Shown here: positions 1 to 637 of the stretch, one piece after another | Layout of the letters: each line of letters begins with the position of its first letter | Numbering within the stretch: position 1 is the first letter of the stretch | Origin: Escherichia coli | GTDB taxonomy: Bacteria > Pseudomonadota > Gammaproteobacteria > Enterobacterales > Enterobacteriaceae | NCBI RefSeq assembly: GCF_003334385.1 | Contig: NZ_QOWN01000158.1 | DNA: 637 bases | Direction: 5' to 3' (one strand) | Position numbers and translations under genes: made by a program | The notes under the pieces: generated by a model | Databases searched by the model: none | What the model was told of the DNA's origin: nothing | Seen by the model: the letters and a program-made list of their open reading frames with translations, nothing else

Positions 1-88
1 TTGCGTTTTGTAGGCTGTCAGGGATACTGTCCCACGAATGGCCACCTGTAAGCTCCAGATGACCATTTTTGTTATTCTCCACAACGAG

Positions 89-637
89 TTAGTTCTTCTT
101 TTCGGATCCGGCACTTCTGGGGGGGAAATCCAGCGATGGCTGGATTATGTCGTCAATTAAAAATGCGGCGAGTAGATTAGCAAATATCCACGCTTTCGCG
201 AGTTCAGGTTCCTTTGCACGCAAAGCATCCAGGTGCAGCAAACTTTTGAGCCGCTTAAAAGCCAGTTCAATTTGCCATCGCAGACGGTAACAATCAGCCA
301 CTTGCTCTGCTGAATATTCATCTTCCGGTAATGATGTTAGCAATAGCACATGGCCCGCTGCTTCCAGCGTTTCCGCCTGAACTACTCGTCCTTTTCGACG
401 ATTCTCGCTGAGCAGTCGGGTTTTACTGATTAATGCTTTTTCGGGAGGAAGTGATACGGCAATGAGACGTGCCGGAAAGGGAGCTCCGGCTTTTTTATTA
501 CCTGAATTGCCTATCATTACAGTGGTTTCACCGTTCTTACCGCAATCCAGCCCGCGCAGAAAACCCATCATGTCAAAGCGCATTCCTTCTGCAGTTAACC
601 AGCGCAATCCTCGCCAGTGAACCCGGACGATATAATC
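89..637 (-). CDS. insL: IS4-family DDE transposase, IS186-type, C-terminal part only (5' end of gene lies beyond the right window edge)
   Basis: Minus-strand ORF with TAA stop at 89..91. The reading frame stays open from 607 to the window edge at 637 (upstream codons read DYIVRVHWRG, no stop). The track start at 605..607 is TTG, not ATG, so it is an internal Leu codon. The translation contains YRLRWQIELAFKRLK, an exact fit to the IS4-family Y-(2)-R-(3)-E-(6)-K signature that carries the catalytic Glu of the DDE triad. The whole visible peptide matches what I recall of the E. coli IS186 transposase InsL; this is recall, not a database search. Confidence 0.88.
   Translation of the reverse strand, partial: DYIVRVHWRGLRWLTAEGMRFDMMGFLRGLDCGKNGETTVMIGNSGNKKAGAPFPARLIAVSLPPEKALISKTRLLSENRRKGRVVQAETLEAAGHVLLLTSLPEDEYSAEQVADCYRLRWQIELAFKRLKSLLHLDALRAKEPELAKAWIFANLLAAFLIDDIIQPSLDFPPRSAGSEKKN
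245..289 (-). other. YREK catalytic signature of IS4-family transposase (Tyr 287..289, Arg 278..280, Glu 266..268, Lys 245..247)
   Basis: Direct translation of the minus strand: tac cgt ctg cga tgg caa att gaa ctg gct ttt aag cgg ctc aaa gives Y R L R W Q I E L A F K R L K, with spacing Y-2-R-3-E-6-K. Confidence 0.85.

Follow-up and report, generated by a model that had tools for sequence, protein, structure and literature searches.

The insertion sequence IS186 was already known in the 1980s and is, to our knowledge, annotated in every record of Escherichia coli K-12. The mechanistic models of the IS4 family are IS10 and IS50, and cut-and-paste transposition through a hairpin intermediate is established in both of them; we know of no study in which this route was directly established for IS186. 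Members of the IS4 family use a cut-and-paste mechanism, and the hallmarks of the family are a DDE triad with the spacing D(60~110)D(100~150)E, the signature Y(2)R(3)E(6)K in region C1, a single open reading frame without a frameshift, and a target duplication of approximately 10 bp (PMC2266710). Insertions of IS186 at one site of the lon promoter are spontaneous and recurrent and occur in either orientation (PMC3045373, citing SaiSree et al. 2001; also PMC12844343); the insertional mutagenesis at this promoter that the initial annotation of the DNA studied here ascribed to IS186 is therefore documented (PMC3045373).

This DNA is a stretch of 637 bp from E. coli, positions 1 to 637, which is designated “the window” and was analyzed over its full length. 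With a probability of about 97%, the window represents an internal segment of IS186, a member of the IS4 family with a length of approximately 1.34 kb that also appears in annotations under the name IS421. IS186 is already known, and the window does not represent a new system.

Identity of the window and its position within IS186

Read as its reverse complement, the window aligns with IS186A of E. coli K-12 MG1655 at positions 623 to 1259 of this 1345-bp feature, with 637 of 637 bases identical and neither a mismatch nor a gap. “IS186-like” had been the term used in the initial annotation: the assignment as an IS186 fragment was borne out over all 637 bases, but the wording was too weak for a sequence that is identical to IS186 of K-12. 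The BLASTN comparison suggested there yielded, as expected, a high-identity match to IS186 that mapped to the 3′ half of the transposase gene and to the distal arm.

The window holds 47% of IS186, and both ends of the element are absent from it. The right end is located 86 bp beyond the window if the end of the annotated feature is used, or 83 bp beyond it if the last base of the inverted repeat is used, which takes the element as CATAAG...CTTATG (1339 bp). The left end is 622 bp outside the window on the side of position 637. The window is thus wholly internal to IS186 and contains no terminal inverted repeat, no flank, and no target duplication. Of its bases, 549 at positions 89 to 637 (minus strand) constitute the 3′ half of the transposase gene including the stop codon, and 88 at positions 1 to 88 are non-coding. 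A division into the 3′ part of a transposase gene and a trailing non-coding arm had been correctly recognized before, albeit with an arm that is in fact incomplete and ends 83 to 86 bp short of the end of the element; the strand of the gene, minus, had not been given. Completeness, activity, and insertion site of the source copy are beyond what a window of 637 bp can show, because the 5′ half of the gene with the codons for D115 and D170 is located outside, as are the flanks and both inverted repeats.

Relationship to IS421 and to other IS4-family elements

The three copies of MG1655, IS186A, IS186B, and IS186C, are mutually identical, and the window does not differ from these elements or from their products InsL1, InsL2, and InsL3: residues 189 to 370, the stop codon, and the non-coding tail are the same. 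A copy from strain 720632, which was annotated by PGAP as “IS4-like element IS421 family transposase” (WP_001300563.1), matches IS186 of K-12 at every base of the inner 1343 bp, and its 370-aa product is identical to that of insL of K-12. In MG1655, insL is itself annotated as “IS186/IS421 transposase.” Judged by this sequence, the names IS186 and IS421 denote one and the same element, because the copies are identical in sequence and protein. An attribution of the window to IS186A, IS186B, IS186C, or IS421 was ruled out, since all of them are identical in this region. PGAP labels the identical transposase as “IS421 family” if it is intact and as “IS186B family” in some partial copies, and this inconsistent naming could mislead automated counts of insertion sequences.

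The relatives of the protein are distributed in a sharply bimodal manner. Proteins with at least 90% identity are those of IS186 itself, and the next IS4-family group follows at 26 to 38%, as exemplified by IS231C from Bacillus thuringiensis and ISApu2 from Aeromonas, the values being those over the window fragment. IS186 shares with other IS4-family elements the DDE_Tnp_1 domain, the Y(2)R(3)E(6)K signature, the single open reading frame, and the duplication of approximately 10 bp, and CAT is found at the start of its ends, a feature of the IS231 and ISH8 subgroups as well. What sets IS186 apart from other IS4-family elements is the preference for G/C-clamped targets that was observed at the reference copies.

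The transposase gene

The sole long open frame of the window enters from the right edge on the minus strand, and it is closed by a TAA stop codon at positions 91..89 of this strand, in agreement with the end of insL1 in MG1655. It is one uninterrupted frame from position 637 to the stop codon, and the reference gene is a single open reading frame of 1113 nt without a programmed frameshift. The 3′ half of insL, codons 189 to 370 of 370, occupies positions 92..637 on the minus strand and continues beyond position 637. Its DNA is 100% identical to positions 623 to 1168 of IS186A, and its translation of 182 residues (DYIVRVHWRG...PPRSAGSEKKN) is identical to residues 189 to 370 of InsL1 from MG1655.

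The full-length identical protein reached 133.3 bits with the NCBIfam model NF033592 (IS4 family transposase), compared to a cut-off of 115. The window fragment alone yielded 91.5 bits (E = 5e-26), which is below this cut-off because the fragment is half a protein. The Pfam domain PF01609 (DDE_Tnp_1) was found at residues 107 to 348 with E = 3.6e-26. A regular-expression match, combined with coordinate mapping, located the Y(2)R(3)E(6)K signature of region C1, YRLRWQIELAFKRLK, to residues 305 to 319, encoded at positions 245..289 on the minus strand. The codon of the catalytic glutamate E312 is part of it and occupies positions 268..266. Both models and the signature confirm the IS4-family transposase that had been named in the initial annotation.

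The two other catalytic residues, D115 and D170, have their codons beyond the window and were located in the identical reference protein. They were assigned by motif recognition and by the start and alignment of the Pfam domain, not by experiment. These residues rest on motif and Pfam because a sequence search of PDB for a structural anchor gave no significant match, the best one being an unrelated protein at E = 0.27. The spacer between D170 and E312 comprises 141 residues, and that between D115 and D170 comprises 54 residues, slightly under the range of 60 to 110 that is approximate for the family. As judged from the sequence, the coding part of the window specifies the C-terminal catalytic region of a DDE transposase of the IS4 family.

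Ends and target sites of the reference copies

A perfect terminal inverted repeat of 23 bp, CATAAGCGCTAACTTAAGGGTTG, was present in all four reference copies, which were IS186A, IS186B, and IS186C of MG1655 and the copy of strain 720632 (locus L001). The target duplications were 10 bp at each of the three MG1655 copies and 12 bp at the L001 copy, and each of the four was positioned within a GGGG(N6-7)CCCC target. This pattern was taken from the four reference copies together with the title of a publication cited in PMC3045373, and it agrees with the “consensus target sequence” that is mentioned in this title (SaiSree et al. 2001).

In a complete copy, the 370-aa InsL would bind to the two 23-bp terminal inverted repeats and would then move IS186 by cut-and-paste DDE chemistry, as may be expected from the membership of the element in the IS4 family (PMC2266710). 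Insertion would occur into GGGG(N6-7)CCCC targets with duplication of 10 to 12 bp. The part of the gene that is located in the window contributes E312 as the third catalytic residue and, with it, the YREK motif.

The surroundings of the reference copies were recorded, too. The L001 copy (NZ_CP025842.1, L001:2415-3759) interrupts the group II intron reverse-transcriptase gene ltrA with the 12-bp duplication in GGGGGTATGGGCCCCC, and the 5 kb around it contain piled-up fragments of IS3 and IS30. Genes for hok-type toxins adjoin IS186 at four separate loci in MG1655 and on plasmids. These genes are hokC (L002:2752-3011) and hokE (L004:3734-3989) in MG1655, a gene for a “small toxic polypeptide” on plasmid pGD80-2 (L006:2178-2393), and hokD on plasmid pB27_2 (L007:640-795). 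We take the two K-12 cases to be the already known insertions of IS186 beside chromosomal hok/sok loci.

Search for additional content and the non-coding tail

Evaluation of the window needs to consider that it may have a second function besides its part in transposition, either through a small protein encoded on the plus strand or through its non-coding tail, which could act as a structured element at the level of RNA or DNA. The plus-strand open reading frames are 26 to 52 aa in length and overlap the transposase frame, which argues against the first of these possibilities. None of the eight open reading frames of at least 20 aa in the window matched a PADLOC defense family, PADLOC being the only library scanned, and this includes those located at positions 1 to 88. 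A comparison of both strands of the window with Rfam at E ≤ 1 yielded no match. Direct repeats or repeat arrays were not found in the window, and the three inverted pairs that were present are short, distant from each other, and imperfect and look like chance. Promoter-like sites were absent from the window. Two terminator-like sites were identified, compared to 0.6 expected by shuffling. Both are positioned inside the coding region, one of them on the antisense strand and the other one with a weak stem of 5 pairs. The window contains no cargo and no other recognizable function, and the earlier statement that a cargo gene, a CRISPR array, a toxin-antitoxin pair, and a defense-like open reading frame are lacking holds with respect to repeats, Rfam, promoter-like sites, and PADLOC.

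The tail deserves a separate consideration. Positions 1..88 of the window, read on the minus strand, are the first 88 of the 174 non-coding bases between the stop codon and the right end of IS186 and map to positions 1172 to 1259 of the 1345 positions of IS186A. A hairpin with 12 pairs, two of them G-U, and a loop of 7 nt is predicted at positions 37..67 for the transcript in the sense of the transposase (minus strand). It begins 21 nt 3′ of the insL stop codon and appears in the minimum-free-energy fold as well as in the centroid fold. The two G-U pairs favor the transposase-sense strand. When the complete tail of a reference copy with 187 nt was folded, it was better folded than all of 200 shuffled sequences (z = −3.83), and a second long, imperfect hairpin was observed just outside the window (L002:2648-2700). 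In contrast, the fold of the 100 nt inside the window was not significant (z = −1.81), and 10 of 200 shuffled sequences folded equally well.

A T-run does not follow the hairpin at 37 to 67 on the transposase-sense strand, and no terminator-like site was called at this position on either strand. The variant copies at loci L006 to L008 displayed zero changes in window positions 1 to 88. Covariation of the hairpin is unavailable as a criterion because the copies of IS186 are nearly invariant. The literature searched reported no role for the tail hairpins of IS186, and we likewise know of no role of the tail structure. The structured tail of IS186, composed of the hairpin at 37 to 67 and the second hairpin, may conceivably be a functional element, for instance, a stabilizer or terminator at the 3′ end of the mRNA, a barrier to transcription, or a subterminal binding site of the transposase, albeit with a low probability. 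The broader idea that the window exerts any second function is likewise improbable: the 12 pairs in both folds, the orientation of the G-U pairs, and the value for the 187-nt tail speak for it, but the in-window fold, the missing matches to Rfam, the missing terminator-like call at the hairpin, and the unavailable covariation speak against it. The reading of the window as an internal piece of IS186, composed of a part of insL and a part of the tail, is used in the following.

Distribution and variant copies

A Megablast search against 5426 complete E. coli genomes resulted in matches with 100% identity over 637 bases (1177 bits, E = 0). The matches were distributed over 8482 places in 2751 records and were present in 2190 of the 5426 genomes, with a median of 3 and a maximum of 22 places per positive genome. 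The annotated features at these places bear the names “IS4-like element IS421 family transposase” or “IS4-like element IS186B family transposase.” In 2698 of the records, the identity was at least 99%, and 2709 of the 2751 possessed a place that covered at least 80% of the window. Among the plasmids in PLSDB, 943 records matched. Escherichia was in the majority, followed by Salmonella with 91, Klebsiella with 71, and Shigella with 45 records, plus Serratia and others, and copies identical to the window are present on plasmids of these other genera, too; the sequence by itself therefore makes E. coli a probable host and not a certain one. The sole “phage” record with the window, OR844776.1 (locus L009, “Escherichia phage ECO111 5-P”), has a length of 5129 bp and a coverage of 3.65 and is flagged UNVERIFIED_ORG; this record probably reflects a phage preparation that contained host DNA and not a phage carrying IS186.

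These data also decide about the possibility that there is no more than a resemblance to IS186 and that the window belongs to a host gene that is not mobile or to a domesticated transposase. Nothing was found in favor of it. It is refuted by the spread in multiple copies over varied chromosomal and plasmid sites, by the exact match to IS186A, in which the 100% nucleotide identity extends through the non-coding tail, and by the inverted repeats and target duplications at the borders of the reference copies, so that its remaining probability is negligible.

Several copies that deviate from the intact element were observed. A run of seven G residues (C7 in the coding sense) was read directly from the sequence at positions 119..125 of the window, within the last 12 codons of insL. 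The IncHI2 plasmid pGD80-2 (KY075659.1, locus L006) carries a 1-nt deletion in this run and has an annotated open reading frame of 1275 nt instead of 1113 nt, and this may be either a genuine frameshift variant or a sequencing error in a homopolymer. The run is also shortened by G125A in the copy of pINV (NZ_CP119442.1, L008:901-1537). This copy is a 98.9% variant with seven differences from the window, five of which are G>A changes (plus strand), and directly adjoins the transposase gene of the IS4-like ISEc60. A coding sequence over this match is not listed in the PLSDB table, which is incomplete and omits pseudogenes.

IS186 was split by IS1A in at least seven E. coli chromosomes with a duplication of window positions 319 to 328 on both sides. 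One of these split copies (NZ_CP119441.1, L003:2501-3914) is located within a DUF2543 gene between sapA and puuP, and this locus is a nested arrangement of an insertion sequence in an insertion sequence in a gene. Partial matches on plasmids comprise window positions 58 to 637, 1 to 288, 1 to 90, or 1 to 38 only.

The existence of such partial, IS1A-split, and frameshifted copies leads to the question of whether the window may originate from a defective copy of IS186, truncated, interrupted, or frameshifted elsewhere, instead of an intact mobile one. Its intactness is not checkable from the window, with the 5′ half of the element outside. On the other hand, the window shows no interruption and has 100% identity with the active element of K-12, and most copies are not truncated in this stretch, as judged from the records with at least 80% coverage. 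A defective source copy is accordingly considered unlikely.

Meaning for E. coli

As an internal piece of IS186, the window is best masked or labeled as a repeat and not pursued as a candidate for a new system. IS186 is common on conjugative plasmids, and the value of the window is one of bookkeeping. Its sole biological meaning is that of a marker, indicating that the source replicon carries at least one copy of IS186 and that the source strain can therefore undergo insertion mutations of the lon type.
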